Source: a virus
Lineage: Duplodnaviria; Caudoviricetes
Length of the DNA stretch: 53,582 bases
Reading direction: 5' to 3' (one strand)
IMG/VR virus record: IMGVR_UViG_3300006105_001565
Location: 1-53,582 of that record
The position numbers and the translations under genes were made by a program. Positions 3,345 to 51,323 of this stretch are shown piece after piece. Position 1 is the first letter of the stretch, and each line of letters opens with the position of its first letter. The notes below the pieces were generated by a model. The model did not search any database. It was not told where the DNA came from and saw only the letters and a program-made list of their open reading frames with translations.

Positions 3345-3353
3345 AATTTGTTT

Positions 3354-3827: not shown

Positions 3828-3832
3828 AATGT

Positions 3833-5419: not shown

Positions 5420-5440
5420 ATTTTTATATTTAAGATGTAA

Positions 5441-5470
5441 AGTTAATATTATTTTTGGATATTCCAAAAA
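5441..5470 (-). promoter_or_regulatory. Promoter-like element with inverted repeat upstream of the NAMPT-like gene
   Basis: TTTTTGGA-TAT-TCCAAAAA at 5452-5470 followed on the minus strand by a TAACTTTA -7-like element. Confidence 0.4.
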
Positions 5471-9387: not shown

Positions 9388-10545
9388 TTAATTTGATAAG
9401 GGGGCTTTAATACTTGGATGGGAATTGTAATTCGCTATTTCAAAATCTACAGCTCTCCAATACTTAGTTTTCTCAATTATTGATGGTTTTTCACCATTTA
9501 TCACCAATTTTGGTAATTCATATGGTTCTCTTGTTATTTGTTCCTTAGCAGCATCGATATGATTCAAATACAAGTGTGTGTCTCCTAAATTACCTATCAA
9601 TTCATCAGGTACCATATTAACTTCTTTAGCTAATATTTCCAATAATAATCCATATGATGCTATGTTGAACGGCAAACCGAGGAATGTATCTACCGATCTT
9701 TGGTTCCACATCAATGAGATTGCTCGGGTTGGGATTTTCATTTCGTCACAAGTCTGCAATGCTTGTTCGATTAGAGCTGGATATTTTTCTTGGATTTTGC
9801 CTCCTGCCAATTCTATTCTCTCTTTAGCGCTCAACTCTCTCGTATAAACTTGAAATCCATAATGACAAGGTGGTAAAACCATTTCGTTTAATTCGCCCAC
9901 ATTCAAAGCACTAACCATCAATCTTCTACTATCAGGATTTGATTTTAATTGTTCTATTAGATTTGCAATCTGGTCAATACCTTTATTTTTCTTTCTTACT
10001 TTGGAATTACCATCTTCAATGCGTTCTTGACAATCACAAAAATATGGGTTTATTTCACCACCTTTATAGTCGGTTATCTGTTCAGGTTTACCATTCCAAT
10101 TCTTCCATTGCTTACCATATATAGGACCTAACTCACCCCACTTCTTAGCAAACTCATCATCTGTTTTGATTTTATTGATGAATTCTTCTTTTGATAAATT
10201 ATTATAATGTCCTGCAGGTGATATATGTGTCTCGGTCCCATCATCATTCTTAACAATCTTGGTTTGTTTATAATTCTTATAAGCATCACCATCCCAAATA
10301 TGACAACCATTATCAACAAGATATTTGATGTTGGTATCTCCACGAAGGAACCATAATAACTCAGTTACCATTGTCTTCCACGCCATCTTCTTAGTTGTTA
10401 GCAACGGGAATCCTTCACTCATTTTGTGACGAATTTGTCTACCGAATACTGATACAGTACCAGTACCAGTTCTATCTTTTCTAGTTACTCCGTTGTCAAG
10501 AATGTCTTGAAGTAAGGATTGATATGATTTATCTAAGTTATTCAT
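9388..10545 (-). CDS. thyA: Thymidylate synthase
   Basis: DRTGTGT, ELLWFLRG, LGPIYGKQW, PDSRR, LPPCH, QRSVDTFLGLPFNIASY, GDTHLYLNH; start reassigned to ATG 10545 (MNNLDK). Confidence 0.96.
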   Translation of the reverse strand: MNNLDKSYQSLLQDILDNGVTRKDRTGTGTVSVFGRQIRHKMSEGFPLLTTKKMAWKTMVTELLWFLRGDTNIKYLVDNGCHIWDGDAYKNYKQTKIVKNDDGTETHISPAGHYNNLSKEEFINKIKTDDEFAKKWGELGPIYGKQWKNWNGKPEQITDYKGGEINPYFCDCQERIEDGNSKVRKKNKGIDQIANLIEQLKSNPDSRRLMVSALNVGELNEMVLPPCHYGFQVYTRELSAKERIELAGGKIQEKYPALIEQALQTCDEMKIPTRAISLMWNQRSVDTFLGLPFNIASYGLLLEILAKEVNMVPDELIGNLGDTHLYLNHIDAAKEQITREPYELPKLVINGEKPSIIEKTKYWRAVDFEIANYNSHPSIKAPLSN

Positions 10546-11023
10546 TTGTTTTATTTTTACTTTTGTGTTTAGATAGGTGCAGATCAGCTTTCCAAGATAT
10601 TGCAAGTATTGCTAAACTACAAAGTGAATTACTCACTAACATAGGACCAGGCGTCGATTTCAAGATTGTACCACCAATAATAATTATGATTGATGCAAAT
10701 GTTATTTTATCTGTGGTAACATTTTGTCTACCATATAATCTTAATTGTTCATCAATCTTTTCAAATCTGATTGAATCTTTTTGTGTTTGATTCAATGTAT
10801 CAATATGGTTTTTTTTCCAATTGACATAGTCCGCAAATTGATTAGATAAAATTGTATCTTTCACTTGTGCTTTGATACCTGATATGAATGAAAGTAAGGT
10901 AACAATTAATAAAATTAAACCTCTAATCGTTTTAGTTCTAATATTTCTACCCTCCAAACATTTTTTACATTCACCATCAATCATTGTTACTTCCGGATGC
11001 TTCGGGCATTGATTCCATTCCAT
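10538..11023 (-). CDS. Hypothetical membrane protein with N-terminal Cys/His motif
   Basis: CPKH...CKKC then three hydrophobic segments. Confidence 0.6.
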   Translation of the reverse strand: MEWNQCPKHPEVTMIDGECKKCLEGRNIRTKTIRGLILLIVTLLSFISGIKAQVKDTILSNQFADYVNWKKNHIDTLNQTQKDSIRFEKIDEQLRLYGRQNVTTDKITFASIIIIIGGTILKSTPGPMLVSNSLCSLAILAISWKADLHLSKHKSKNKTNE

Positions 11024-15383: not shown

Positions 15384-15638
15384 TTATTTTCTTTTTGCTT
15401 TATTAATAGATTTTTCAAAGTCTCTTTTACCTTTAAAATATGGGTCTCTATAATCTAACTTCCAATCGTGGTAGTTATAATCATTAATCAATTCTTTTGG
15501 TTCCGATATCCTAACTTCATCAGGGTCCTCTTTAATCAATTTATTAACTTGTTGTTTAATTCTGTGACGAATTGTTCTCCAATATAAAGCAACATTGGCC
15601 TTATCCTTGAGTATTGGTTTCTTGTGACTCCTGCTCAT
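15384..15638 (-). CDS. Small basic phage protein (MSRSHKKP N-terminus)
   Basis: 84 aa, Lys/Arg-rich. Confidence 0.7.
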   Translation of the reverse strand: MSRSHKKPILKDKANVALYWRTIRHRIKQQVNKLIKEDPDEVRISEPKELINDYNYHDWKLDYRDPYFKGKRDFEKSINKAKRK

Positions 15639-16122
15639 TGTTTAACTTTTTAATGATTTTCTCCTTAAGTCCGGTTTGTTTTAGACCCTCACTACTTTTT
15701 GTTTGGAAAAAATTCTCACCTAAACTCGTTAATTTGAGATCGTCAATTGCAACCCAAGTATCAGGTTTGTTGTAATCAATCCATTCTTTAATTTGATAAG
15801 AACGGTCATCTTCCAATTCAGAGCTCATCTTTCTTTTGTATTGATGAGTCACAAACTCGGGTGACTTGATAACCCCATTACCTATAAATATCTTGTCAAG
15901 GTCCTCAAGATTCCAATGCATCCTCCAATCCGAACTTAGAACGATTGTTGCGTCAGTTGCTTCAATTATCTCATTAAGAATTTTAACACAATCTTTATTC
16001 CATCCATAAGGAACACGTAATTCTCTGGCCCAAGGGTTTTTTTGACTGAATTTATTACGATTCATCATAAACTCTTTGTCGGTAGCTACAACTCCATCTA
16101 TATCTAAAAAAATGACTTTCAT
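15601..16122 (-). CDS. HAD domain protein (HAD_SAK_2-like)
   Basis: FLDIDGV, IVLSSDWR, WVAIDD, EGL motifs. Confidence 0.85.
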   Translation of the reverse strand: MKVIFLDIDGVVATDKEFMMNRNKFSQKNPWARELRVPYGWNKDCVKILNEIIEATDATIVLSSDWRMHWNLEDLDKIFIGNGVIKSPEFVTHQYKRKMSSELEDDRSYQIKEWIDYNKPDTWVAIDDLKLTSLGENFFQTKSSEGLKQTGLKEKIIKKLNNEQESQETNTQG

Positions 16123-26149: not shown

Positions 26150-26347
26150 ATGAAGAAAGAAGTGAAATTAACTAGTGTAAATTTAGTTAAAGACGTATAT
26201 AATACTTTTAGGACAAATACAGCGGAAACTGATATGAATTTTCAAAAACTTGTTAATAGGTCATTGGACTTATATAACAAAGATGAGAATTTTAGAGATA
26301 AAATCAATTCACACGAAACATTAGGAGTTAAAAATTCAAAGTATTAA
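26150..26347 (+). CDS. Small possible ribbon-helix-helix DNA-binding protein
   Basis: KLTSVNL strand then two helices (FQKLVNRSLDLY); first gene of the glycosylation operon. Confidence 0.55.
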   Translation: MKKEVKLTSVNLVKDVYNTFRTNTAETDMNFQKLVNRSLDLYNKDENFRDKINSHETLGVKNSKY

Positions 26348-26350
26348 TTA

Positions 26351-27715
26351 ATGGCCAAGAAGAAAATATTACTAATGTCAGATGATTTAAGAATGACATC
26401 GGGTGTATCAACTATGTCCAAAGAACTTGTATTGGGCACCATTGACAAATACGATTGGGTTCAATTAGGTTCAGGTATAAATCATCCTGAAATAGGATTA
26501 ATGGTGGATATAGATGAGGATGTTAGAAAAAGAACTGGTATAACTGATGCGTCTCTTAAAATATATCCAAGTAATGGGTTTGGTAATTTTGATATTCTTA
26601 AAAATTTAATTAAAATTGAGAAACCGGATGTCATTCTTCATTTCACTGATCCGCATTATTGGCAGTGGGTGTATGAAAATGAACACGAAATAAGAAGACA
26701 GATACCTTTACTTTATTACCACGTATGGGATAACATTCCCGATCCGCTTTATAATAGAAATTATTATGAAAGTTGTGATTGGATAGGTTGTATTTCTAAA
26801 TTAACTTATGGAATGGTAAATCGTGTTGGTAAATTAAATGATAAATCAACATACAAACCATTAGAAGATTGGCAAATCAGTTATGTGCCACACGGTATTA
26901 ATCCTGAGGTTTATAAACCATTAGATTCGATAAATGATGATGTTTATAATTTTGTTAATGGTAATAAAAAATATGATTTCATATTATATTATAATAATAG
27001 AAACATAAGAAGAAAACAATCTAGTGATGTTATATTATCTTACAAACTATTTTGTGATAGATTATCCAAAGAAAAAGCAGAAAAATGTTTGTTATTAATG
27101 CATACACATCCAATCGACGAAAATGGAACAAACTTACCAGTAGTTGTTGATACCTTATGCTATGATTATGATGTTATGTTTGATAATCGTATACTTGAAC
27201 AAAATATAATTAATGAATTTTATAATCTTGCTGATTGTACAATCAATATAGCAAATAATGAAGGATTCGGTTTAGGAACAGCCGAAAGTATTATGGCAGG
27301 TACACCAATTATTGTTAATGTTACAGGTGGTTTACAAGATCAATGTGGATTCGAATATAGTCCTAATGATTATATAAAAATTGGTTCATTACACGATCGT
27401 AAAAATTTAAAAGATACTCCAAAACACGGCGAATGGGTTGTCCCCGTTTGGCCATCTGCAATAAATGTAAATGGTTCAATACCAACTCCATATATTTTTG
27501 AAGATAGAGTCAATAATCACGAAGTTGCAGATGCTATAATGAAAATTTATAATTGGACAAAAGAGGAAAGAAAAACAAAAGGAAAAGAAGGTAGAGAGTG
27601 GGCTAAGAAAAATCTTTCGAATAAAATTATGTGTGACTCTCTAACAGATGGTATAGAAAATACAATAAACAATTTTAAACCAAAAGAAAGATTCAATCTT
27701 TATAAAATAATATGA
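26351..27715 (+). CDS. GT4 (GT-B) glycosyltransferase
   Basis: VPHGI, NRNIRRK, NEGFGLGTAESIMAGTPII. Confidence 0.9.
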   Translation: MAKKKILLMSDDLRMTSGVSTMSKELVLGTIDKYDWVQLGSGINHPEIGLMVDIDEDVRKRTGITDASLKIYPSNGFGNFDILKNLIKIEKPDVILHFTDPHYWQWVYENEHEIRRQIPLLYYHVWDNIPDPLYNRNYYESCDWIGCISKLTYGMVNRVGKLNDKSTYKPLEDWQISYVPHGINPEVYKPLDSINDDVYNFVNGNKKYDFILYYNNRNIRRKQSSDVILSYKLFCDRLSKEKAEKCLLLMHTHPIDENGTNLPVVVDTLCYDYDVMFDNRILEQNIINEFYNLADCTINIANNEGFGLGTAESIMAGTPIIVNVTGGLQDQCGFEYSPNDYIKIGSLHDRKNLKDTPKHGEWVVPVWPSAINVNGSIPTPYIFEDRVNNHEVADAIMKIYNWTKEERKTKGKEGREWAKKNLSNKIMCDSLTDGIENTINNFKPKERFNLYKII

Positions 27716-28965
27716 GTAAACCAAGTTTATTATTTAGAGGACCCGTCAAGACAAGGTCAGGATATGGTGCACACGCAAGAGATATCCTAAAGTCTTTGTA
27801 TGATATGGATTTATTTAAAATAAGTATCGACGCTTGCCCTTGGGGTAACACACCGCAAACTGCATTAGAAGATGATAATTCATTTCATAATTGGATCAAG
27901 GATAACATTGTCACTAGAGTAACAACTATGCCTGATATATACATACAAGTTACTGTTCCAAATGAATTTCAAAAATTAGGGAAAGTTAGTATTGGTGTTA
28001 CTGCAGGTATTGAAACAACTGTTGCACCGAAAGATTGGATAGATGGATGTAATAGAATGGATCACATAATTACCACTTCCAATTTTTCAAAAGAAGTTTT
28101 GTTGTCAACAATCTATGATGAAAATGATTTAGTTACTAATCAATTAATTAAAAAATATAAAATAGAAAAACCAATTTCTATTTTATTTGAAGGTGTTGAT
28201 ACCAATTTATATAATAATGAATATAAAAATTTTGATTTAAATATAAAAGAAGATTTCGCTTTCTTATTTGTTGGTCATTGGTTGAAAGGTAATATTGGTC
28301 AAGATAGAAAAGATGTTGGTATGTTAATAAAAGTATTTGCTGAAACATTCAAAGACCAAGAAAACCAACCCGCATTAATTTTAAAAACATCTTCTGGTAA
28401 TTTTTCTGTTATAGAAAGAGAAAGATTAAGAACAAGTATTGAAACTGTAGTTGGTGCAGCAATAAACCCACCGTCAATCTATTTGATATTTGGTGAATTA
28501 ATGGATTCAGAAATGAACCAATTATATAACCATCCAAAAGTTAAAGCTATGATTAGCTTGACAAAAGGTGAAGGATTTGGTAGACCATTATTAGAATTCA
28601 CTATGACAGGTAAACCAGTTATAGCGTCTAATTGGTCAGGTCATAAAGATTTTTTACCAAATGATAAGGCGATTATGATAGGTGGAACTTTAACAGATGC
28701 ACATAGTAGTGCAATAGATAGTTTTATAATTAAAGATTCAAAATGGTTTACAGCAAATTATAATGAAGCTTCAAATGTTATGAGATTTGTAAAAGATAAT
28801 TATGATAAAATTTTAATCAAATCTGAACAATTAAGAATTGAAAATAAAGAAAAATTCTCATTTCAAAAAATGACAGAACAATTCAAAGAGATACTCAAAC
28901 CATATGTTACTAAACAACCCGTATACCATAATTTGATTTTACCAAAATTAAAAAAAATAGGATAA
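27712..28965 (+). CDS. GT4 (GT-B) glycosyltransferase
   Basis: SGYG..AR, EGVD, DRKD, GEGFGRPLLEF...GKPVIASNWSGH. Confidence 0.9.
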   Translation: MSKPSLLFRGPVKTRSGYGAHARDILKSLYDMDLFKISIDACPWGNTPQTALEDDNSFHNWIKDNIVTRVTTMPDIYIQVTVPNEFQKLGKVSIGVTAGIETTVAPKDWIDGCNRMDHIITTSNFSKEVLLSTIYDENDLVTNQLIKKYKIEKPISILFEGVDTNLYNNEYKNFDLNIKEDFAFLFVGHWLKGNIGQDRKDVGMLIKVFAETFKDQENQPALILKTSSGNFSVIERERLRTSIETVVGAAINPPSIYLIFGELMDSEMNQLYNHPKVKAMISLTKGEGFGRPLLEFTMTGKPVIASNWSGHKDFLPNDKAIMIGGTLTDAHSSAIDSFIIKDSKWFTANYNEASNVMRFVKDNYDKILIKSEQLRIENKEKFSFQKMTEQFKEILKPYVTKQPVYHNLILPKLKKIG

Positions 28966-29201
28966 TGAGAAAGTTTCAATTTTTTAGAGGATACACTAAT
29001 GAATGGGTTAGTACTCAAGTAGTGGGTGGTATAAGACCTCTTAGAGCAATATGGTCACAAGAATTGATTACGGAATTAGATACATATCACGGAATCAATG
29101 CTGAAAATGAATTAATAAGTTTAATATCTAGAGAAATTTCAAGAGAAATTGATAATGAAATACTCAATACATTTATGTCAAATGTAATGGGTCAAGCATA
29201 A
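28965..29201 (+). CDS. Mini-protein resembling an internal segment of T4-type major capsid protein gp23
   Basis: RPLRAIWSQEL..ELDTYHGINAENELISLISREISREIDNEIL parallels the gp23 block RxLKAxxSxELAQDLxAxHGxDAExELxxILSxEIxxEIxRE. Confidence 0.7.
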   Translation: MRKFQFFRGYTNEWVSTQVVGGIRPLRAIWSQELITELDTYHGINAENELISLISREISREIDNEILNTFMSNVMGQA

Positions 29202-29210
29202 ATTAAAATT

Positions 29211-29831
29211 ATGGAAATAAGTTTTGCAATTACAGTTTGTAATGAATTAAAAGAAATAAAAACATTATTACCATTTCTTTTGGATTATAAAAAAACGGAA
29301 GATGAAATAATTGTTTTATATGATGAAAATAATGGTGATAAAGCGGTGTTAGATTTTCTATTACCTTATGATAAAAAATTTAATGTTCAAATTTGGAGAA
29401 GTTTTGATTTTGATAAAAATTTTGCTGATTGGAAAAATTTATTAAACAGTTATTGTAAAGGTGATTTTATATTTCAATTAGATGCTGATGAAATGATAGA
29501 TAGGTATATGGTGGAAAATTTATCTACAATAATCGAAATGAATAAAGACATTGATTTAATTTTTGTTCCAAGAATCAATACTGTAAGTGGATTAACCGAA
29601 GAACATATTAAAATGTGGAATTGGAAAGTGAACGAGAAAGGATGGGTTAACTTCCCTGATTTTCAAGGGAGAATATATCGTTCAAATATGATTTGGCACG
29701 GTAAAGTTCACGAAAGAATAATTGGTGGAGAAAAGTTTTCTTCTTTACCTTTGGATGAAGAATATTGTATTCAACATCATAAAACAATCGATCGTCAAAT
29801 AAAACAAAATAATTTATATAAAAGCATATGA
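29211..29831 (+). CDS. GT2 glycosyltransferase
   Basis: ISFAITVCNE, QLDADE, PDFQGRI, W.GKVHE. Confidence 0.88.
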   Translation: MEISFAITVCNELKEIKTLLPFLLDYKKTEDEIIVLYDENNGDKAVLDFLLPYDKKFNVQIWRSFDFDKNFADWKNLLNSYCKGDFIFQLDADEMIDRYMVENLSTIIEMNKDIDLIFVPRINTVSGLTEEHIKMWNWKVNEKGWVNFPDFQGRIYRSNMIWHGKVHERIIGGEKFSSLPLDEEYCIQHHKTIDRQIKQNNLYKSI

Positions 29832-34683: not shown

Positions 34684-35774
34684 GTTTTGTATTAGCAGTT
34701 TATAATAAATTAGAATTAACGAAAGAATGTTATAAACATCTTCGTAATGTTTATCCCAATGAACATTTGATTATTAGTAGTGGTGGTTCTAATGATGGAA
34801 CAAAAGAATGGTTACAATCATTAGATGATGATAATTTAACTTACGTTCACGACGATGATCGCTTATCTTTTTCTGACACATATAACAATGGAATATCCCT
34901 TGTTGATACTGAAAAGTTAGTATTAATACATAACGATATGGTCATTGGTGAGGGTTTCTTAGAAGCTATTGAAAGATTATTAACTGAAAATATGATATTA
35001 TCTTACACAACAGTTGAACCACCAATTTTTGCGGGTCATAAAAGACCAGGTAAAGTTATCATTGATTTAGGTAGAAACTTTGAAGATTTCGATATGTTAA
35101 ATTTCAACAATTACGTTCAACAACATAAAGATTCTAATGAATTATATGATGGTGCTGTGTTTTTTATGAGTGGCTATAAAAAATCCTTTGTTGACATTGG
35201 TGGATTTGATGGTTTCAGTTTCAATCCTTGTTTCTCTGAAGATGATGATTTTTTGATACGTGCAAAATTAAAAGGTTATACTTTAAAAACCTGTGATTCT
35301 GCAATAACTTATCATTTTGTTTCTTTAACCTCAAGATTTAGTGACGATACAAAAAACACTAGAACACAAATCGAATTAGATTCTAATAAAAATTTTATAA
35401 GGAAATGGGGTTTAATGATTAAAACATTCTATGATATGAATTATCAAACCAATGATAATTTTGAATATGTGAAATTGAGAATCGGTTTAGAGACTGATGA
35501 TATTAATGTATTAGAGCACATAGAACCATTTTTTGATGAAATTGATTTTAAAGGCGATCCAAGCACTTTTATCGAAAAAGAACAATCTCATACAAACTAC
35601 GATTTAAGTCTTAAATTTACCCCTATTGGTTATGTTAACGCTATGGTTTATCAAGATGGTAAATTAACTAATGAAGACTTCGATACTATTTCCAAAATAA
35701 GATTAATTATTCCCACATTAGACGAGGGCAAATATGAATTAGGTAATTTAAAAATAATAATAAAGGGGAATTAA
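34674..35774 (+). CDS. GT2 glycosyltransferase
   Basis: IHNDMV, IGGFD, EDDDF..R, YHFVS; GTG start overlapping upstream gene. Confidence 0.82.
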   Translation: MEISFVLAVYNKLELTKECYKHLRNVYPNEHLIISSGGSNDGTKEWLQSLDDDNLTYVHDDDRLSFSDTYNNGISLVDTEKLVLIHNDMVIGEGFLEAIERLLTENMILSYTTVEPPIFAGHKRPGKVIIDLGRNFEDFDMLNFNNYVQQHKDSNELYDGAVFFMSGYKKSFVDIGGFDGFSFNPCFSEDDDFLIRAKLKGYTLKTCDSAITYHFVSLTSRFSDDTKNTRTQIELDSNKNFIRKWGLMIKTFYDMNYQTNDNFEYVKLRIGLETDDINVLEHIEPFFDEIDFKGDPSTFIEKEQSHTNYDLSLKFTPIGYVNAMVYQDGKLTNEDFDTISKIRLIIPTLDEGKYELGNLKIIIKGN

Positions 35775-35788
35775 ATCCCCTTTTTTTT
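35762..35788. terminator. Terminator between convergent operons
   Basis: AAAGGGGA-ATTAAA-TCCCCTTT followed by a T-tract. Confidence 0.75.
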
Positions 35789-41942: not shown

Positions 41943-43007
41943 TTAAACTATGGTTTTTTTTACATTAATAAACTCGTGTAAATTATGAAATTGTTGAGGT
42001 TCTTTCCATATTTTATTGAGTTCTTTCAAAAATTCAGAATATTCTGGATGTGATTTATCCCATACTTTTAATAACATATATTCACCTTCGCTCAAGTGGC
42101 CCCAATTTAGTATTTTACCAAAATACACATATGCTTTTTTATTGAAAATACTCTTCATTAAATCAAGAAAAATCTTCATCTCTTTGTAATTGTGTGATTG
42201 AACAACAAATGAAGTTTTAATGTTTTTTAATCTTGGTATTGTATTAATGAATTTCAGGTTTTCAATTAGTGTTTCCCATTTACCTCCTACCCTTGTTAAA
42301 TTTTCATAAGTTTCTTTGGTACCGGCGTCTATACTTATCTCACAAGTCTTAACGTATCTATGTATATTAGGCATACTATCCCACATTTCTTTGGTCCATA
42401 GTGAAGCGTTAGTATGTAAATGTATTTGTTCTAATTTTGGATATTTCTTCGGGTCAAAGTTTCTAAGGAAATTTCTAAAACTTACTGACGCAAAAGGGTC
42501 TCCTGTTCCTGTTATGTATAAGATTTTGATATTATTAGCATAGAATTCTTCTATTTCTTCAATAGTAGATGTAATTTCTTTTATCTCTTTACTATCGGCC
42601 ACAATCAACCCAATTCTACAAGATGGACATTTATAATTGCAAGATCGGTCAAATGAAAAATTAACCCATTGAGGTGTTGTGCTCATTTCACCAGTATCAT
42701 AATCGTAATCCTTTAAAATTTCTTGAGCCAAAGGTTTAGGTGCTATCGGCCCTAAATCACCGTTTTCTCCGAAATTAACCAATTGTGATAAGTGTGGACA
42801 TTCACTTTTATCACAATATTTGTAATCGCCGTCAATAATACTCTTTCTTATGTCTTTAGCTTCATTTGAATTCCAAACATCTTTCAATGGTACATCATTA
42901 GGTAATGCTTTTAAAAGCCAGCTTGGACAACACATATAACTCTCATTCTTATGAAGTTGTATATTTGTAAAAGGTAAAGCACATATATAATTCTTCAAAT
43001 CTATCAT
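41943..43007 (-). CDS. Radical SAM enzyme with N-terminal Cys-rich (twitch/SPASM-like) region
   Basis: CNYKCPSC, GDPF, HTNA, ISIDA; N-term CALPF, CCPSW, CDKSEC. Confidence 0.9.
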   Translation of the reverse strand: MIDLKNYICALPFTNIQLHKNESYMCCPSWLLKALPNDVPLKDVWNSNEAKDIRKSIIDGDYKYCDKSECPHLSQLVNFGENGDLGPIAPKPLAQEILKDYDYDTGEMSTTPQWVNFSFDRSCNYKCPSCRIGLIVADSKEIKEITSTIEEIEEFYANNIKILYITGTGDPFASVSFRNFLRNFDPKKYPKLEQIHLHTNASLWTKEMWDSMPNIHRYVKTCEISIDAGTKETYENLTRVGGKWETLIENLKFINTIPRLKNIKTSFVVQSHNYKEMKIFLDLMKSIFNKKAYVYFGKILNWGHLSEGEYMLLKVWDKSHPEYSEFLKELNKIWKEPQQFHNLHEFINVKKTIV

Positions 43008-43477
43008 ATCAAATTTTGTATTTTTTTAAAATTGAAATCTTTCCTCAAAAAACAAACTAAAGTGAATCTTTCACCACTATTCACCTTTTTAACATAATGC
43101 CATTCATTACCTGTTGTGTATAATAATTGTTTTTTTTTAGGCTTCACAGTTATGTTCTCATATATTAATTCGCCTCCATCAAAATTTTCATTTAAGAAAA
43201 TAATAAAAGTATATGGTTCTTTATCTTGATGAAACTTTTCAAGGATATTAGTGTCTTTATTTACGTGTTGAACTCTTATTCGATCGATATCAATTTTTAA
43301 TAAACCAATTCTTTTTAAGAATTTGAAGTCATTAATATTATCCATCAAATTAACACCATCAAAATGATATACATTATCAGAATTGATATTTATTTTTTTA
43401 TCAATATTAGCATAATAAAAATCTATGAATTCCGAACATTCATCATCTCTCATAATATCGGATAATATTTGTATCAT
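43004..43477 (-). CDS. 2OG-Fe(II) oxygenase
   Basis: HQD...LNENFDGGEL...HYV..V.SGER. Confidence 0.85.
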   Translation of the reverse strand: MIQILSDIMRDDECSEFIDFYYANIDKKININSDNVYHFDGVNLMDNINDFKFLKRIGLLKIDIDRIRVQHVNKDTNILEKFHQDKEPYTFIIFLNENFDGGELIYENITVKPKKKQLLYTTGNEWHYVKKVNSGERFTLVCFLRKDFNFKKIQNLI

Positions 43478-43968
43478 ATCAAAATTTTTGTTTTCAAATC
43501 GTAATTACAAAATACCGCAATAGACCATCTCACACCATCAATAACAGGTTTAACTCTATGTTCAATATTATGTAACATTATAACAATTGAATTCTCTTCG
43601 ACTTCAAAATTTTTAACTTCGTTATTTATAACACATTCTAATTCACCACCTTCAAAACTTTTCAGAGGATATATAACAAAAGACATATTAGTAGAATCTC
43701 TATGGTAATCATCATTCTTATTACTGTTATTGTCTACCATATTTAACCATACAGTATCTATAATAACTTCTTTACTGATATGTTTTTTTATTATGGTTTT
43801 TATTCTATTTTCAATATTTGTATTCAATGTTATTTTTTGTTTGAAATAATCGTTTCTTTTAATAAACTTTAAAAATATAGGGGATTCATCAACAATAAAA
43901 TTATCTATAATGTTTTTGAAATAGGAAAGCTCATCATTTGTGAAGACGTTATTTTCTTGAATAATCAT
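43474..43968 (-). CDS. 2OG-Fe(II) oxygenase
   Basis: HRD...FEGGEL...HRVKPV..GVR. Confidence 0.85.
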   Translation of the reverse strand: MIIQENNVFTNDELSYFKNIIDNFIVDESPIFLKFIKRNDYFKQKITLNTNIENRIKTIIKKHISKEVIIDTVWLNMVDNNSNKNDDYHRDSTNMSFVIYPLKSFEGGELECVINNEVKNFEVEENSIVIMLHNIEHRVKPVIDGVRWSIAVFCNYDLKTKILI

Positions 43969-44492
43969 TACATTAAGGATTTTTTCTTCTCACCTCTATT
44001 AGTTTTACAAAATACGGCTATACAATATCTAACACCTTCTTTTACTTTTATAACTCTATGTGGTGAATTATCAACAATCAATGCACACATATTTCTTTTT
44101 GGTTTGAGTGAATTGATTTTATTATTATCTATCCACTCTAAATCACCGCCAATAAAATCTTCATTAGGATATATTAGTAAAATAGCATCGTGCCCAATAT
44201 CTGTGTGGAAGGGATCGCTTTCATTAGTTCCTACAGTTACTACATTAACTCTACAATAATCAATTTTGATACCTTTATTATTAGGTAGCATTTCATCAAT
44301 TACGTTTATGATGTGTTGTTTGAAATTATCATTTAATTCGACGAATTGGGCATTATATTCATTGAAATAACTTTTATTTTCATTGGTTATAACAACAACT
44401 CCTCTTTTTTCATTTACAGTAAAATTTTCTACTATATTATCCATTTCGAATAACCCATCTTCATTGAATGCGTTTTCTTTAATTATGACCAT
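43968..44492 (-). CDS. 2OG-Fe(II) oxygenase
   Basis: HTD...FIGGDL...HRV.KV..GVR. Confidence 0.85.
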   Translation of the reverse strand: MVIIKENAFNEDGLFEMDNIVENFTVNEKRGVVVITNENKSYFNEYNAQFVELNDNFKQHIINVIDEMLPNNKGIKIDYCRVNVVTVGTNESDPFHTDIGHDAILLIYPNEDFIGGDLEWIDNNKINSLKPKRNMCALIVDNSPHRVIKVKEGVRYCIAVFCKTNRGEKKKSLM

Positions 44493-44496
44493 ATTA

Positions 44497-45561
44497 TTAA
44501 AATATTTTTTTATTCATTTTTATGTACTCGTGTAAATTATGGAATACATATCTATCGAAACATATTTTATTAAATTCTTCGATAAAATTCAAGTGTTCAG
44601 GGTGAGAAATATCGTGGATTTTATTTAACATAAATTGAGCTGGCGAATAAGAATTCCAATCTTGTAATCTACAAAAAAACACTTTACCCTTGTCTTTGAA
44701 AATGTCTTTAACCAAATCAACGAATGAACTCATTTCTTTATAATTAGACGATTGCACAACAAATGAACATTTCACACTTTTTAGTGATTTTATTGTAGAA
44801 ATAAACTTCAAATTATTGATGAGATTATCCCAATTACCACCAATTCTCGTATGATTTTCATAAGTATCTTTGGTCGCAGCATCTATACTTATTTCACAGG
44901 TCTTAACATATTTGTGTATGTTAGGCATAGTATTCCACATCTTTTCATTCCATAAACTTGCATTCGTATGTAAATGAATGTACCTTAACTTAGGATATTT
45001 TTTTGGATTAAAATTTTGAAAGTATTCTCTAATTGGTTTAGAAAAAAATGGGTCACCAGTTGTTGAGGAATATAACATCTCAATTGAATCTGCAAAAATG
45101 TTTTCAACTTCAATTATTTTATCTCTGAATCTCGGTATTTCCTTTTTATCCGAAACAAATAATTCACTTCTACAAGATGGACATTTATAATTGCAGCTTG
45201 GATCGAAATTTAGTTGTACATTAGTTGGACCTTCTTGCATTTCACCTTCTTGAGAGTCGTAATATTTCTTTATGTTGGCCGGTAAATCTTTTTTATGGAT
45301 AATTGGTCCAATATAACCACCATTCAAATTAACTAATTCAGCTAAATAAGGGCAAGATTTTCTATCGCAATAACGATAAGAACCATCAATTACTGATTTT
45401 CTTATGTCTATAATTTCTTTGGAATTCCAAGTTTGATTTAATGTTTCTTTATTTGGGATTTCTTTAGTTAACCAATGCGGACAACAAACCCAATTTTCCT
45501 TTTCGTGTATTTGAAGATGTTGAAAAGGAACTAAACATATGTAATTTTTTAAATCGACCAT
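44497..45561 (-). CDS. Radical SAM enzyme, paralog of 41943-43007
   Basis: CNYKCPSC, GDPF, HTNA, VKTCEISIDA; same 354-aa length. Confidence 0.9.
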   Translation of the reverse strand: MVDLKNYICLVPFQHLQIHEKENWVCCPHWLTKEIPNKETLNQTWNSKEIIDIRKSVIDGSYRYCDRKSCPYLAELVNLNGGYIGPIIHKKDLPANIKKYYDSQEGEMQEGPTNVQLNFDPSCNYKCPSCRSELFVSDKKEIPRFRDKIIEVENIFADSIEMLYSSTTGDPFFSKPIREYFQNFNPKKYPKLRYIHLHTNASLWNEKMWNTMPNIHKYVKTCEISIDAATKDTYENHTRIGGNWDNLINNLKFISTIKSLKSVKCSFVVQSSNYKEMSSFVDLVKDIFKDKGKVFFCRLQDWNSYSPAQFMLNKIHDISHPEHLNFIEEFNKICFDRYVFHNLHEYIKMNKKIF

Positions 45562-46109
45562 TATATTAATGAGGGCTTAGATGTGATAATATCTGTGGAA
45601 TGTAAAAATATAATAAATGAATTTCTTTCTCCCCTTTCAATAACCTCAACTTTGTGGTCTGTTTCAGGAGAATAAATCATACAAGTCCCTTGTTTCCTAT
45701 TCATAATATATTCTTTATCGTCAATCCAATATTTGTAATCGCCACCGATATAGTCTTTAGAATCATTCAATTGCACTGCACAAGTAAATAATCTACTATC
45801 ATAATCATCTTTATGTTTGTAAATGAAACAACCTTCAGTGTATTTTATAATAGTACAATTGATTTTATCTTTTTTCAAAACATAACCTAACTTATTAAAT
45901 AGATTATTGAATTTATCGAATAAATGAGACCCTTTTTCTAAATGAAAATCAGATTGTATAGATTTTCTTTTTCTATTATCAACAACATTTTTTTGAGTAT
46001 AGGTGTCTCCAATTTTGATTGTGAACCCTGATTCATACCACTCTAAATTAGAATTTAAAATAAATTCACATTCTTCTTTATCTAATAAAACATCATTATA
46101 AAAAATCAT
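45561..46109 (-). CDS. 2OG-Fe(II) oxygenase (prolyl-4-hydroxylase-like)
   Basis: RKS..., KY..G..HKD, LND..DY.GG, HKV..I..GER. Confidence 0.85.
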   Translation of the reverse strand: MIFYNDVLLDKEECEFILNSNLEWYESGFTIKIGDTYTQKNVVDNRKRKSIQSDFHLEKGSHLFDKFNNLFNKLGYVLKKDKINCTIIKYTEGCFIYKHKDDYDSRLFTCAVQLNDSKDYIGGDYKYWIDDKEYIMNRKQGTCMIYSPETDHKVEVIERGERNSFIIFLHSTDIITSKPSLI

Positions 46110-46270: not shown

Positions 46271-48178
46271 TTATTTATTATGTACTAATATATTATTAGC
46301 AAAAAAGTTATGGTTATCTTGAACCGTTATGATATATGTTTGTGTATCTTCTGGTTTTAACACTCTAATTTCTTTAATTGCTGTTTGACCGCCAGTTGCT
46401 AATCTTACTAAATCACCTAATTGGATTTTCTTAACATCCTTGTCGATTTTGTATCTATTATTTGTCCATTCAGGTATAAATGATGCTAAACCTAAACCAT
46501 TCACATAGATAGGATGGTCGAAAGTACAAGTTAATTGTGTATCATTTGAGAATGTATACGTCACCAAATCATTATGTACAGGTGAATTCAATCCGATCAC
46601 TTTTTTTGGTTCTATCATTAATGTATTTTCATTGTAAGAAAGAACTTCATCACCTTCCTCAATTTCTTCTATATTTTTTGTTGAACCACCTTCCAATGTT
46701 ACTTTAGTTCCCGCAACAAAACAAGTTCCTAAGTTGTGAGTGATGAAAAATGACATAAAATTACCACTCTCCAAAATGAAGTTATCGTATGGGTCCATAC
46801 TTGGAATGTAATATGTTTGTTGGTCATCATAAATTAAAACATCAATTGATGTAATTTGATTTGAGAAACTACTTTCTCCTAATACTGAGTAACCTAATTC
46901 CAAATCTAATGCTCTCACAAATCTTGTTTCATCTGTGGTTGGGTTGTAAACTAACATTTGCGTTTCTCCACCAACTTCAATGTCGCTACCGTCAGCAAAT
47001 GTGATATAAGTTCCGTCATTTGCATATGATTGATTAGTATATAAAGCTACACAAGTTGAACCAGTTTGGAATGAACCGGATGGTAATGTGTTACCTGTGA
47101 AGAAGTATGTATCTAATAAATCGTAATTATCTGTTTCAGGAATACCTTCAATATGATAAGATTGGTATTCATCACCAATTACTAAGTTAGTAACAGAAAT
47201 TGAATTACCACTTATATCAAGTATGTATTCATTATCTAATATACCGTGTGCACTATTCTTAATGTGGTTTGTTGCAAATTCATAATAATGCTTGGAATCG
47301 ATTAAATTATTTATAACACTATCATCATAATTTATGGATGTTGGTAGTGTGAATAAAGAATCAATTTGATATTGAGAAACATAACAAAGTTGTAAACCAC
47401 TGTCATCAATAGAGGTTGCTGTTTCGCTACCACTATCTACACTATCAGCAGCTCCTGTTACGTTGTAAACAATTTGGAAGCTACGAATACTGTTAACTGT
47501 ATTGTTTGTTATCTGTGACTGATCGATATGGTATTGTTCAATCATTGTATCAGGCGTTGCAACTGTGTTTATAAATTCATTATATCTATCTAATGAGCCT
47601 GAAATTGAATTACCTATCTTATAAAATTGATGTGGCTGGTGTAATTCCAAAACCGTTTTAGTAACAACATCAGGTAAAACATCACCATTGAAAATGGTTG
47701 TGTCTAAAGTATTGTAATTACCATAAAGAGAGGATGAATGATAGAATGCTGTAACTGAATTACTATCTGAATTATCAGCAAATAACTTTAACGTATTCAA
47801 TGTTCCTTTTGCATATTCAGAATCTAAAATAGCTGTTTCATCATATGCCATTCTCAATATGAACTTATTCGGAGCATCATCTGGTGAAGTTGGAAAAATT
47901 GAACTCTCAGGAACTACTATAGGGTTAAATGTCGTAATGAAAGAAGCTGAATCAATTAAAGATTGGGATAAATGGTTGATTATAGGTTGTTGAAGTTCTA
48001 TTTTATATAGAACGTCCAATTCCGTAATATTTGAACCGCTGAGTACTCCTATGAAGTCGCTCCAGTCAAAGGATGACATTTGCGATTCTACAGCACCGGT
48101 ATCAGTATTTATCTCAATTAATCTTAAATTCTCATTTTTATCAATTACAAAATCCGCAGAAAAAAAAGTTCCTTTCAT
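46271..48178 (-). CDS. Circularly permuted ATP-grasp-like domain fused to two tandem Hint domains
   Basis: N-term SADFVID...LRLIEINTDTG; Hint2 CFVAGT...TFDHP...LVHN (aa 486-634); degenerate Hint1 aa 312-482 ending ITHN. Confidence 0.75.
   Translation of the reverse strand: MKGTFFSADFVIDKNENLRLIEINTDTGAVESQMSSFDWSDFIGVLSGSNITELDVLYKIELQQPIINHLSQSLIDSASFITTFNPIVVPESSIFPTSPDDAPNKFILRMAYDETAILDSEYAKGTLNTLKLFADNSDSNSVTAFYHSSSLYGNYNTLDTTIFNGDVLPDVVTKTVLELHQPHQFYKIGNSISGSLDRYNEFINTVATPDTMIEQYHIDQSQITNNTVNSIRSFQIVYNVTGAADSVDSGSETATSIDDSGLQLCYVSQYQIDSLFTLPTSINYDDSVINNLIDSKHYYEFATNHIKNSAHGILDNEYILDISGNSISVTNLVIGDEYQSYHIEGIPETDNYDLLDTYFFTGNTLPSGSFQTGSTCVALYTNQSYANDGTYITFADGSDIEVGGETQMLVYNPTTDETRFVRALDLELGYSVLGESSFSNQITSIDVLIYDDQQTYYIPSMDPYDNFILESGNFMSFFITHNLGTCFVAGTKVTLEGGSTKNIEEIEEGDEVLSYNENTLMIEPKKVIGLNSPVHNDLVTYTFSNDTQLTCTFDHPIYVNGLGLASFIPEWTNNRYKIDKDVKKIQLGDLVRLATGGQTAIKEIRVLKPEDTQTYIITVQDNHNFFANNILVHNK
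46277..46723 (-). other. Hint domain 2 (intact Cys1, TxxH, terminal HN, +1 Lys)
   Basis: CFVAGTKV...IEEGDEVLSY; LTCTFDHP; TYIITVQDNHNFFANNILVHN. Confidence 0.92.
46733..47245 (-). other. Hint domain 1 (Gly at position 1, no TxxH, terminal HN retained)
   Basis: GILDNEYILDISGNSISVTNLVIGDEYQSY aligns without gaps to the Hint2 start; YITFADGS; FVRALDLELG; ends FFITHN. Confidence 0.7.
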
Positions 48179-48208: not shown

Positions 48209-49051
48209 CTAAAATAATTCTTTTTTGGAAGCGTTTTTCAAAATATAGTCGGTTGGGACAACTGGATTCTTATACTTCTGAGGACCACAATAATGATGAT
48301 AAAAATCACCCTTTTTACCTAATTCGTGACATAAATGGGAAGTTGTGAACCCATAGTGGTTCCCTATCAAAGTTAAAAGATATTGAGCGCCAACCATTGT
48401 AGCATAAAATGGGTCTATTTCCGCGATGTGTTCTTTTATGAAAGATTCATATTTCTTCCATTTTTCAACATACAAATCCTTAAATTTTTCGTTTTTTATA
48501 TATAAAAGGCCAATATTCATCACCGGTATTCTTTCACCCGACCATTCTGGTATCAAATCTTTTATCCTCATCTCAGTCAGATTTTTAACTGTTTTTTTAT
48601 ATTGTCCATTCCAAGTAACATATTCAAACGAATCAAAAACTATGTCAGGTGTGTTTATCTTAGTAATTGTGTCGATTGTAGGTTTATATTCCTTTGACCA
48701 GTTGAGATGTTCAAATGAGTCGAAAACAACGTCAGAATCTAATTGTGGTAATTTTTTGTGGATTATTAAATCGCCATCTATTAAACAAAAATCATCATTT
48801 CTTTCTGAGAGAACTTTAATTTTAAAATGATCCCATAAAGGTGAATTCAAATAACCTTCAGTTACGATTATCTCATCTGCGATGTTCTCAAAATATTTTA
48901 CAGAATTGATATCAACATAGATTATAGTATGATAACCAAATTTTTTTGCCTCAGTAATTGATAATATATAATAATTAATTAATATGGTTTGTTTCTCTTT
49001 ACTTGGGTTTTGTAAATTAACTTTGCTATCATATGTCCAAATTAGTTTCAT
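48209..49051 (-). CDS. GT-A-like protein (DGD family, paralog 1)
   Basis: MKLIWTY, LSI..AK.FG, WDHFK, LIDGD, NIG.L, AQYLL, HYCG..K. Confidence 0.7.
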   Translation of the reverse strand: MKLIWTYDSKVNLQNPSKEKQTILINYYILSITEAKKFGYHTIIYVDINSVKYFENIADEIIVTEGYLNSPLWDHFKIKVLSERNDDFCLIDGDLIIHKKLPQLDSDVVFDSFEHLNWSKEYKPTIDTITKINTPDIVFDSFEYVTWNGQYKKTVKNLTEMRIKDLIPEWSGERIPVMNIGLLYIKNEKFKDLYVEKWKKYESFIKEHIAEIDPFYATMVGAQYLLTLIGNHYGFTTSHLCHELGKKGDFYHHYCGPQKYKNPVVPTDYILKNASKKELF

Positions 49052-49819
49052 TTATATAATTGTTTTTTTTAACATATCATCTATATTATTAAATCGAGGT
49101 CTAAGGTGTTTCATTTCGGGGTCCTTATCACTATAAAATGTGTGTCCAATTAATCTCATCTGTAAGCTATCTCTATTGTTATTAAATCTCGTATTCATTA
49201 AAGCAATGCTCATTAATAAACCTTCAGCTCTTCCAGTTGGAACGTTTCCGTATTCCATATCATTTTCAATTGCAAGGTCTTTAAGTTTATCATAGAAATC
49301 GAAAAATTCATCCATATATTCCGATTTTCTAATCAGAAAAATAGATTCGTGTATTGGTGTAGCTTTATCAATTTCATAATTATTTTTTCTACAATAATCC
49401 TCTAATTTTTTGAAGTAATTATCTTTTGGCATATGTTCATAATACATCCAACCCATTCTCCACCAAAAAAAATAATGGAAACCTGGTTCAAATGAAAGAG
49501 TTTTATATAAATTAAAATCTATCAAACAATCAACATCCAAATAAAGTACTGTATCGTGTTTTTCCAATGCTATTTTACATATCTCTAATTTATCTGAATA
49601 AGATGGTATATCTTTTTCATATTTAAAAACATTGATATTGAAACTTTCAAATATCTCTGGATTATCTGTCAAAAGGTATATTTCAAAATCTGTTTCTTCT
49701 TTCAATTTTTTTATCAAATTGAGTGCGTGATTATAATATGAATCATCTCTTTTTTTATGTATAACTCCTCCCCCCATTTTATCAGTAGAAAAACAAAATA
49801 AAGAAATTACCTTTTCCAT
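49052..49819 (-). CDS. GT-A-like protein
   Basis: LLTD, SDK, YLDVD, EG motifs. Confidence 0.6.
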   Translation of the reverse strand: MEKVISLFCFSTDKMGGGVIHKKRDDSYYNHALNLIKKLKEETDFEIYLLTDNPEIFESFNINVFKYEKDIPSYSDKLEICKIALEKHDTVLYLDVDCLIDFNLYKTLSFEPGFHYFFWWRMGWMYYEHMPKDNYFKKLEDYCRKNNYEIDKATPIHESIFLIRKSEYMDEFFDFYDKLKDLAIENDMEYGNVPTGRAEGLLMSIALMNTRFNNNRDSLQMRLIGHTFYSDKDPEMKHLRPRFNNIDDMLKKTII

Positions 49820-50568
49820 TATATAAAAATTTTAGATTGAAATTGAATTATGTGAGTAGATGGAACTGGAGGCGATTGGTATTTAATATTCCCTACATAG
49901 TGTTTATAATAGTTATTTTTCTCTGAAAATTTTTCAGACATACAAGTTGGTGTGATATTATTTTTTTCACATAAAAGACCTAACAAATATTGAGCACCCA
50001 TACAAGCCCTATTTTTATTTGAAAGATGTTCTTTGTTTTTATATATAAAATCACCATATTTTTTAAATCTATCAAGATAAAGCATTCTGAAGTCACGATC
50101 CTTTATGTAAAGAAAACCTGTATTAATAATTGGTGTTTTTTTATTTTCCCATTCGGGAATTAAATCTTTTATTTTCAAATTAGTTAATTCCTCAACATTC
50201 AACGCATATTCCACTTCCCAAGAATTATATTCTATAGCATCAATGTACATTTCATTATTTAACTCAGGTAATTTGGTTTCTAATATAATGTCACCATCAA
50301 TTAACGCAAAATCGTTTTTTTCGTTCTCTAAAGCAGATATTTTAAAACCATCCCATAAAAGTGTTTTATTAGATGGGTTCAAAATGTACACTTCGTCTGC
50401 TAAATTATAAAAGTGTTTTGAAGATTCTAAATCGGTATATATAACCGTGTAATGCCCATATTTTTTTGCTCTTGATATTGAAAGGATATAAAAATTCAGC
50501 ATAAGAATTTTTTTACTCTCATCATTAATAGTGGGTGGGTTACTGTTATATGTCCAAACTAATCTCAT
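49819..50568 (-). CDS. GT-A-like protein (DGD family, paralog 2)
   Basis: MRLVWTY, IYTD, WDGFK, LIDGD, NTGF, AQYLL, HYVG..K. Confidence 0.7.
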   Translation of the reverse strand: MRLVWTYNSNPPTINDESKKILMLNFYILSISRAKKYGHYTVIYTDLESSKHFYNLADEVYILNPSNKTLLWDGFKISALENEKNDFALIDGDIILETKLPELNNEMYIDAIEYNSWEVEYALNVEELTNLKIKDLIPEWENKKTPIINTGFLYIKDRDFRMLYLDRFKKYGDFIYKNKEHLSNKNRACMGAQYLLGLLCEKNNITPTCMSEKFSEKNNYYKHYVGNIKYQSPPVPSTHIIQFQSKIFI

Positions 50569-51323
50569 ATCATCGATTTTTGATTATTCGATCCCAACAA
50601 ATAATTATCAGGTACTAATGGGGTAATAAATTTTGTGTGTCCAACATAATGTGTATAGTATTTTCCTTTTTTTGCAAATCCGTCGGACATACTAATAGGT
50701 TTTATGTTGAAAACTTCACATAATAAAGACAAAAGTAATTGACTAGTAAAACTAGCAGAATTTTTATCAGTTAGTTTATCTTTATTATCCGACACAAATT
50801 GACCATATTTTTTCCATCTATCTATATATGTTTCTAAAAAGTTTTTATTTTTTATATGTAAAAATCCGTTATTCATAATAGGTAACTTTTTATTACTCCA
50901 TTCGGGTAAAATATTTTTAATCCCTAAATTTGTTAATTCTATAACGGTGTTTTCATAATCATTTTTCCAAGAACCGAATTCAAATGCGTCAACATATAAT
51001 TCCTCAGTTAACAACGGCAATTTGCTGTGTAAAATTATATCACCATCAATAAGGGCATAATCATCCGTTTCCCTTTCCATCGCAACTATTTTGAAATCGT
51101 CCCATAATATTTCATAATCATAACCTTCAATTATGTGCATTTCATCAACAATATCTTTGAAATATTTTTCAGAAAACGAATCAGTATAAATTATGGTTTT
51201 ATAACCAAATTCTTTGGCTTTCAATATTGATAATATATAATAATTGATTCTGATAATGGTTTTATCCTTCTCAGTTTCTTTTATATGTAAAGGGTTGCTC
51301 TTATATGTCCAAACCAATCTCAT
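50565..51323 (-). CDS. GT-A-like protein (DGD family, paralog 3)
   Basis: MRLVWTY, IYTD, WDDFK, LIDGD, NNGF, HYVG..K. Confidence 0.7.
   Translation of the reverse strand: MRLVWTYKSNPLHIKETEKDKTIIRINYYILSILKAKEFGYKTIIYTDSFSEKYFKDIVDEMHIIEGYDYEILWDDFKIVAMERETDDYALIDGDIILHSKLPLLTEELYVDAFEFGSWKNDYENTVIELTNLGIKNILPEWSNKKLPIMNNGFLHIKNKNFLETYIDRWKKYGQFVSDNKDKLTDKNSASFTSQLLLSLLCEVFNIKPISMSDGFAKKGKYYTHYVGHTKFITPLVPDNYLLGSNNQKSMI

Follow-up and report, generated by a model that had tools for sequence, protein, structure and literature searches.

In chloroviruses and in mycobacteriophage virions, capsid or virion proteins are glycosylated by enzymes that the virus itself encodes. To our knowledge, no gene for a fragment of a capsid protein belongs to either of these systems. 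Jumbo-phage glycosyltransferase clusters have also been treated (PMC7824862). The 29-residue piece Gol of the T4 major capsid protein gp23, located in the first quarter of the protein, suffices to trigger the Lit protease in E. coli (PMC3014915), and the T4 internal proteins are highly diverse except for a conserved stretch, the capsid-targeting sequence (CTS), which brings them into the scaffolding core (PMC3012670). Here, we describe a small gene, the mini-gene (its product and relatives being called minis), which encodes 78 aa followed by a stop codon at positions 28965..29201 (+ strand) of the virus record IMGVR_UViG_3300006105_001565 (Duplodnaviria; Caudoviricetes). The window analysed is the whole public record of 53,582 bases, with a GC content of 0.300; its CheckV completeness of 16% implies a genome of roughly 330 kb. 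Judged by its sequence features, the mini-gene is small but functional, represents an undescribed type and is made up of a tag that contains its only lysine, a lysine-free body derived from a capsid protein and a short tail. The FKFF tag and the near-absence of lysine are its most telling features.

The body of the mini is homologous to the major capsid protein of T4-type phages. The window protein matches the Pfam family PF07068 (Gp23) with an E-value of 3.5e-10 and 40.3 bits (cut-off 24.4), residues 23-71 aligning with positions 147-195 of the 376-position profile, and PHROG 138, 'major head protein', with an E-value of 3.4e-10. Comparison by hhalign of 41 minis with 12 full-length capsid proteins gave a probability of 99.8% and an E-value of 8.6e-28 over 60 columns, mini residues 14-72 pairing with residues 332-391 of a 575-aa capsid protein; in BLASTP the window mini is 50% identical to the 575-aa capsid protein over 44 residues. 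Among solved structures, the mini profile matches residues 250-313 of T4 gp23 (6uzc, E 4e-11) and gp24 (1yue, E 1.9e-4). We take gp23 250-313 to be the strand and spine helix of the capsid protein, a placement also given in an earlier assessment of this DNA made from its letters and open reading frames (ORFs), the sequence-only reading. The proposal in that reading that the core mirrors a conserved gp23 segment was confirmed by the significant Gp23 profile and hhalign matches, while the start of the homology shifts from residue 23 to about residue 14. The match covers a part of the fold: for a shell-building Gp23 protein we expect an alignment to the profile from end to end and a length of about 400-650 aa, and the full capsid proteins in related records have 417-575 aa, whereas the 78-aa mini matches the profile significantly but over positions 147-195 of 376. 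No full-length capsid gene is present in the 53.6-kb window, which is 16% complete.

The ORF is intact and its start codon overlaps the stop codon of the upstream glycosyltransferase gene GT4b, the TAA and the ATG having one base in common within the TAATG at 28963..28967 (+ strand, read directly from the sequence); AGGA lies two bases ahead of the ATG. The coordinates and quoted sequence of the sequence-only reading agree with this, as does the TAATG coupling it described. At the base composition of the window, the chance of an 89-codon open frame is about 1e-3. Residues 1-13 (28965..29003, + strand; M-R-K-F-Q-F-F-R-G..., including K3) form the N-terminal tag region, recognized by tag motif counts, and lie outside the hhalign alignment to capsid proteins. 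The capsid-protein-derived core, residues 14-72 (29004..29180, + strand), consists of a strand (14-31), a short helix (32-42) and a long helix from residue 46, as assigned from hhalign, the T4 gp23 match and the helices predicted by AlphaFold2. Residues 73-78 (29181..29198, + strand; ...N-V-M-G-Q-A), delimited by alignments, are a short tail. Most relatives end in '...T-R-R-I-N-G-G...R-A' instead, of which the tail of the window protein seems to be a worn form, if the two are equivalent. A reading of the '...I-N-G-G...R-A' tail as a double-glycine leader or as part of the precursor of a ribosomally synthesized peptide (RiPP) was rejected, because the peptide after G-G often has 3 residues, the window copy is without G-G and no peptidase or transporter is encoded nearby. 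With the 41-sequence alignment, AlphaFold2 predicts helices at residues 32-42 and 46-75 (pLDDT 65-76) and leaves residues 1-31 unstructured (mean pLDDT 61), and hence the mini probably needs a partner to fold fully. In 18 of the 60 core columns, minis and capsid proteins have the same conserved residue, and many of these residues are polar (R, E, H, D, E, E, S, D). A further 11 columns are conserved in capsid proteins only and none in minis only. The core has thus kept capsid-type constraints and has not drifted to a generic helix.

The mini-gene lies inside a glycosyltransferase operon, as stated in the sequence-only reading; GT4b is immediately 5' and another glycosyltransferase gene, GT2, starts 9 nt 3' of it. 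The same cassette surrounds all 22 tag-type minis with visible context, which are on viral contigs (the window, L002, L003, all 16 loci of a subfamily scan and L181-L183); these loci include near-duplicates and belong to a single clade (GT4b 64-99% identical). The gene order is a GT4 of about 450 aa, a GT4 of about 416 aa, zero to three small ORFs, the mini (68-142 aa) and GT2. The ORF of about 416 aa was called in 21 of the 22 loci; at L182:2198-3282 no long ORF was called at the expected place of GT4b and the gene may be disrupted. In 12 of the 16 subfamily-scan loci an ORF of 206-213 aa directly follows the mini and was identified as GT2 by Pfam in the two loci checked, the exceptions being a 324-aa ORF in between (L011, L013), a 247-aa ORF (L021) and the end of the locus (L012). 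Two paralogous small ORFs of 79-91 aa, s1 and s2, are located between GT4b and the mini in most related loci (for instance L015:1738-2249 and L018:4488-5005) and are absent from the window. They were considered as further capsid pieces and rejected (hhalign probability 0.1).

Searches for relatives returned mostly other small proteins. A profile of three minis, run against 1.84 billion representative proteins, gave 1045 matches at E <= 1e-3 and 117 at E <= 1e-10. Nearly all top-scoring matches are short (78-133 aa), with alignments that begin at residue 1 on the query side as well as on the match side; capsid-length matches (>400 aa) cover the query only from about position 10-16 onward. The start motif and the core are common to the 39 short matches retrieved, and a search of a protein collection gave two 78-aa relatives of the window mini, one 99% and one 81% identical. 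The representatives of the three nearest ESM Atlas clusters have 88, 69 and 89 aa, and the clusters have 148, 147 and 127 members, of which 76-93% carry Gp23 and 95-97% are viral. In a cultured-phage collection, tblastn with the window mini gave no match and no mini was found in any of the searches; the relatives P0013 and P0087 matched annotated capsid proteins or unannotated records among the matches inspected, from which second matches in LR756508 and RM378 were left out. RsoM2USA_383 (411 aa), the one 'hypothetical protein' match inspected, looks like the unannotated capsid protein of that phage. A word-based search for longer homologues of the mini found none, which is weak evidence, and a scan with P0004 gave one irrelevant locus only. 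On other A+T-rich phage contigs there are proteins of 136-213 aa in which this strand and helix precede the 'VQP' block of the capsid N-terminus, and in five of the seven such loci examined a 65-84-aa ORF with the capsid C-terminal block lies directly upstream. Paired small ORFs with capsid segments in reversed order were seen at L027-L033, L058 and L009:1444-2156 (record G003), a C-terminal-block ORF of 65-85 aa coming first and an ORF of 136-213 aa with strand-helix and then N-terminal block second; a 94%-complete, 332-kb phage of higher GC content also has one reversed-type pair.

The mini frame is open in all 22 cassette loci, at identities as low as 36%. Between the window and L002, the ratio of non-synonymous to synonymous substitution rates (dN/dS) of the mini is 0.34 (11 synonymous and 17 non-synonymous changes; P 0.014 against neutrality), and it is 0.19 for L003/L014 and 0.28 for L019/L020; over all 85 usable mini pairs it ranges from 0.19 to 1.06 and is below 1 in 84. 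For the flanking enzymes, dN/dS is 0.08, 0.13 and 0.013 between the window and L002, and 0.03-0.30 (GT4b) and 0.03-0.28 (GT2) over usable pairs; among close pairs, 0.19-0.34 for the mini compares with 0.01-0.14 for these enzymes. The purifying selection on mini-homologues that the sequence-only reading had named as a check is thus found, though weaker than on the flanking enzymes, whereas its expectation of recurrence with the same boundaries holds for the N-terminal boundary, which is fixed, and fails for the C-terminal one, which varies (68-142 aa). The mean core identity of minis to capsid proteins is 0.40; of 52 distinct capsid cores, none shares more than 44% identity with the window core. 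This high divergence indicates an old, separately evolving lineage and no recent copy. A tree of the 60-column core is unresolved, the capsid label taking three changes, and is compatible with one or more origins of minis. Taken as a whole, the interpretation given in the sequence-only reading is partly supported: the checks it named favour a maintained gene, on account of the Gp23 match, the fixed N-terminal boundary, the same neighbours in every one of the 22 loci and the purifying selection; it has to be amended for the varying C-terminal boundaries and for relatives without the strand, and it passed over the FKFF tag and the near-absence of lysine. The roles it put forward, a decoy, an inhibitor of assembly and an adaptor that brings glycosyltransferases to capsids, would be candidates. 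By these measures, we consider the mini to be a maintained gene and not debris.

Behind the tag, lysine is almost absent. The bodies of 18 cassette minis contain 0.35% Lys (5 of 1430 residues) and 9.65% Arg, compared with 8.5% Lys and 3.3% Arg in 126 long ORFs of the same loci, a depletion of lysine with a P of about 2e-47. In the 60 core columns the minis have 0.24% Lys and 9.35% Arg, and the capsid cores have 3.8% and 7.1% in the same columns; a column with K in 100% of the capsid proteins mostly has R in minis. The window mini has no K in the 71 residues behind F-x-F-F against the 8.5% background (P 1.8e-3 for this protein alone), and its sole lysine, K3, is just ahead of the F-x-F-F core. 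The lysines of s2 are confined to the first 12 and last 19 residues, near its two end motifs. In the arrays of tagged small genes described below, tagged ORFs contain 4.3% Lys and 6.3% Arg, tags included, and untagged small ORFs of the same arrays 8.9% and 5.0%. Since a change from AAA/AAG to arginine codons opposes the mutation pressure at 30% GC, the lysine avoidance is the clearest sign of selection on the mini. The pattern points to some lysine-directed process that would involve only the lysine of the tag.

The N-terminus, which the sequence-only reading called unrelated, is not peculiar to the mini: starts of the form M-x(1-3)-F-K-F-F-x-G are seen on many further small proteins of the clade. 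Of 1661 ATG-start candidates (>=50 aa, 19 related loci), 55 have the strict motif M-x(1-3)-F-x-F-[FL] at their start, where about 7 are expected; these 55 include four alternative starts of the same genes and three matches that are probably spurious. The window mini (M-R-K-F-Q-F-F) is one of the 55 and the only tagged ORF in the window. At the DNA level, the pattern for M-x-x-F-K-F-F gave 12 matches in five related records and a reversed control gave none. In record G004 (316 kb, 95% complete), the full capsid gene (L113:1297-3024), with a scaffold-like protein encoded upstream, lies about 180 kb from the mini (L019:5001-5210), and an array at about 246 kb (L114) has at least six tandem small genes that all begin with the tag. 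Arrays L115 (G007) and L116 (G006) contain about twelve and six tagged small genes with unrelated bodies, of which two are membrane-anchored, some are rich in Thr, Gly and Asn, and some carry other capsid-protein blocks; a terminal membrane helix was found in 2 of 25 tagged array proteins. One array body carries the '...T-R-R-I-N-G-G' motif of the mini tails. The motif F-K-[FL]-F is also seen C-terminally: s2 proteins have it, as do a 68-aa ORF of L181/L182 and several of the short matches retrieved. Short relatives of the P0012 and P0013 type, which come from protein collections, have the motif at either end. The s2 proteins have the FKFF tag at the start and an F-K-L-F-A-R motif at the end. 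A glutamate is found 7 residues past the first Phe in 12 of the 55 tags, and the window mini has T-N-E at residues 11-13. That the tag is a DNA or promoter repeat was considered unlikely, as there are no spacers between the genes, which adjoin or overlap one another, and the changes among residues are conservative. The FKFF-tagged small proteins form an undescribed group in this phage clade, known from sequence alone.

Homology, tag, lysine avoidance, fixed gene neighbours and purifying selection are directly supported; from them we infer the binding steps, the reader of the tag and any link to capsid glycosylation in the following proposal. We tentatively favour the view that the mini is a tagged mimic or adaptor that acts with phage head proteins or with the enzymes of the operon. 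Its body goes back to an ancient copy of the strand, short helix and spine helix found in a T4-type major capsid protein, and the mini would be translated together with a soluble glycosyltransferase set. Working as bait or adaptor by molecular mimicry, the capsid-like strand-helix would bind the usual contact of that part of the head protein, the first-guess partners being the phage's own head-building proteins or operon enzymes acting on them, and the tag would plug the mini into one common reader that serves dozens of other tagged small proteins. A wider and more doubtful version of this proposal is an address-and-bait toolkit, in which dozens of small proteins per genome would have a terminal F-K-F-F label with its lysine as the single reactive or recognized site, lysine-free bodies and, in some cases, head-protein baits as bodies. 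The tag lysine would then be the target of the common reader, which might be an enzyme that conjugates or modifies lysines or else the glycosyltransferase set itself, and each bait would thereby be delivered or anchored.

Several observations weigh against the mimic or adaptor proposal. The dN/dS of the mini is two to five times that of the flanking enzymes, the strand has been lost in several relatives (L016, L023/L024, L026), and cassette minis have a mean core identity of 0.47 to one another, compared with 0.72 for capsid proteins. In the window copy the K of most tags is replaced by Q and the tail is shortened, and L025 looks degenerate. Moreover, the 22 loci all come from one phage clade, and their shared context therefore counts as one evolutionary event, not 22. 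In the nearest cultured phages with a GT4-GT4-GT2 core, Flavobacterium phage immuto and Microcystis phage Mel-JY01 (GT4b 44% identical), the place between GT4b and GT2 is taken by an unrelated Cys-rich protein of 152 aa (immuto) or is empty (Mel-JY01), so that the enzymes of the cassette have no need of a capsid-like partner and the mini is one clade's add-on. The degenerate look of L025, the shortness of the mini and its weaker constraint relative to its neighbours could also be read as a recombination leftover, a decaying capsid-gene fragment that stays open by chance. We regard this as very improbable, given the frame kept open in every cassette locus down to 36% identity, the dN/dS below 1 in 84 of 85 pairs, the lysine-to-arginine changes made against the A+T mutation bias, the conserved tag, and the three ESM Atlas clusters of 69-89-aa Gp23-bearing proteins with 127-148 members each.

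The position of the mini-gene could be taken to mean that its product serves the glycosyltransferases as accessory subunit or regulator, any link to the capsid having been lost and the helix reused as a structural element. The tight TAATG coupling to GT4b, the 9-nt gap to GT2 and the gene order kept in all 22 loci fit such a role, as do the strand-less relatives, which retain tag, helix and tail, and the neighbouring s2, which is tagged without similarity to capsid proteins (hhalign probability 0.1). However, related cassettes work with another protein or none in this slot, 18 capsid-type positions have been kept and no mini-specific ones gained, and other tagged proteins are encoded far from any glycosyltransferase cassette; we therefore consider this role unlikely, if a little less so than the two that follow. 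One of these starts from the tag: like the T4 CTS, it could direct tagged proteins, the mini among them, into the prohead, from which they would be injected. Many diverse small proteins in a Gp23-type phage indeed have a short N-terminal peptide as their sole common part, and a body consisting of a capsid piece could lie against shell or scaffold. Packaging is nevertheless improbable, as F-K-[FL]-F is also found at C-termini (s2, the 68-aa ORF of L181/L182, several short proteins), 2 of 25 tagged array proteins have a membrane helix at their end, and no regular protease site is evident after the tag (E at +7 in 12 of 55). The other, put forward in the sequence-only reading, is a decoy against capsid-sensing host immunity: a conserved capsid epitope, made early or in excess, would soak up or misdirect a host sensor. 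That a short gp23 piece alone triggers Lit speaks for it (Gol, PMC3014915). The copied piece is also among the best-conserved parts of Gp23 (core identity between major capsid proteins averages 0.72), and its rapid evolution and varying length would suit a conflict gene. The capsid N-terminal 'VQP' block, which we take to be the Gol region, is present in longer relatives elsewhere. Yet the window mini matches gp23 250-313 and not the first quarter that holds Gol, we know of no sensor for a segment of the 250-313 type, the steady place in a sugar operon is left unexplained, and a trigger-like bait could itself set the sensor off, so that a decoy seems quite unlikely to us.

The operon around the mini-gene runs on the + strand from about 26150 to a hairpin at 35762-35783 and contains glycosyltransferases, epimerases and unassigned genes. 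At its head is a 65-aa lysine-rich ORF (26150..26347, + strand), placed in the cassette from its position only; L003 has a homologue in the equivalent position (2901-3128). The ORF matches none of the families at E <= 0.01 and could encode a small regulator. GT4a (26351..27715, + strand; 454 aa), the first gene of the conserved cassette, matches Pfam Glycos_transf_1 (1.8e-5) and the glycosyltransferase family PHROG 2170 (1.2e-15); its orthologues are 67-71% identical in 11 loci and its closest solved relative is the chlorovirus glycosyltransferase B736L (3oy2, 1.2e-8). GT4b (27712..28965, + strand; 417 aa), directly upstream of the mini-gene, matches the same two families (3.5e-7 and 2.5e-24) and has orthologues that are 64-99% identical in 14 loci, and GT2 (29211..29831, + strand; 206 aa), 9 nt past the mini stop, matches Pfam Glycos_transf_2 (5.6e-8). 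The hairpin at 35762..35783, which is terminator-like in both directions and closes the sugar operon, was found by a consensus scan only. Clear membrane segments are missing from all 12 operon proteins, and the Pfam matches of the operon include neither a flippase nor a polymerase nor an enzyme that primes a lipid carrier. A set of soluble proteins of this kind would fit a soluble acceptor, which could be a protein. A protein O-glycosyltransferase pair like GtfA/GtfB was considered and is unsupported by a sequence search of the PDB.

Elsewhere in the window, other genes were seen on the - strand. Two 354-aa radical-SAM ORFs at 41943-46109, each followed by ORFs resembling 2OG-Fe(II) oxygenases (157, 164 and 182 aa) and a 174-aa ORF, look like a duplicated modification module. 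Seven ORFs of 207-280 aa at 48209-53536 form a tandem array of paralogues, three of them with weak DUF6734 matches, and a 635-aa ORF at 46271-48178 has a Hint/intein-type domain in its C-terminal 150 residues (Intein_splicing 3.4e-12, PT-HINT 3.5e-8). The thymidylate synthase at 9388-10605 has 405 aa and the 266-position profile spans its residues 26-404, leaving roughly 110 extra residues. At 2475-5467 and 15601-16122 lie two neighbouring genes for NAD salvage, one similar to nicotinate/nicotinamide phosphoribosyltransferases and the other PRPP-synthetase-like, as well as a HAD domain of the 'Swiss Army Knife' RNA-repair type (6e-26).

If the proposal of a tagged mimic or adaptor is true, large T4-type phages would have recast pieces of their most conserved structural protein as small, tagged, lysine-free ('quiet') proteins. 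No published counterpart of this gene design was found, and full-text searches, with subscription journals outside their coverage, returned no description of capsid-fragment mini-genes or of the FKFF tag. The single lysine in a conserved terminal motif offers a concrete experimental handle, and the steady link to soluble glycosyltransferases makes glycosylation of the head or of small proteins testable in aquatic phage-host systems. Short Gp23-bearing proteins are easily mis-annotated in metagenomes as broken or partial capsid genes, and recognition of the class therefore matters for annotation.

Compared with the described systems, the locus shares one trait or another with each. As in viral capsid glycosylation, a virus-borne set of soluble glycosyltransferases is present and the nearest solved relative of GT4a is the chlorovirus enzyme B736L, while for this phage we infer the action of the enzymes on the capsid. 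The tag resembles the T4 CTS, likewise a short N-terminal peptide that is the sole common part of diverse, fast-evolving small proteins (PMC3012670), the likeness being one of description; unlike the CTS, the FKFF tag is also C-terminal, is found on two membrane-anchored proteins and appears to have no regular cleavage site after it. Gol, of the Gol/Lit/EF-Tu exclusion system, is a short capsid-protein stretch that is active alone (PMC3014915), but it belongs to the first quarter of gp23 and is part of the full protein, whereas the mini corresponds to residues 250-313 and is a separate gene. The T4 proteins gp23 and gp24 (PF07068, HK97 fold; 6uzc, 5vf3, 1yue) differ in having the N-arm, A-domain and rest of the P-domain that the mini is without; lysine-purged and with a foreign tag and tail, the mini covers about 50 of the 376 profile positions and would be incapable of forming a shell, yet its residues 14-72 correspond to gp23 250-313 and 18 of the 60 positions are conserved in common.

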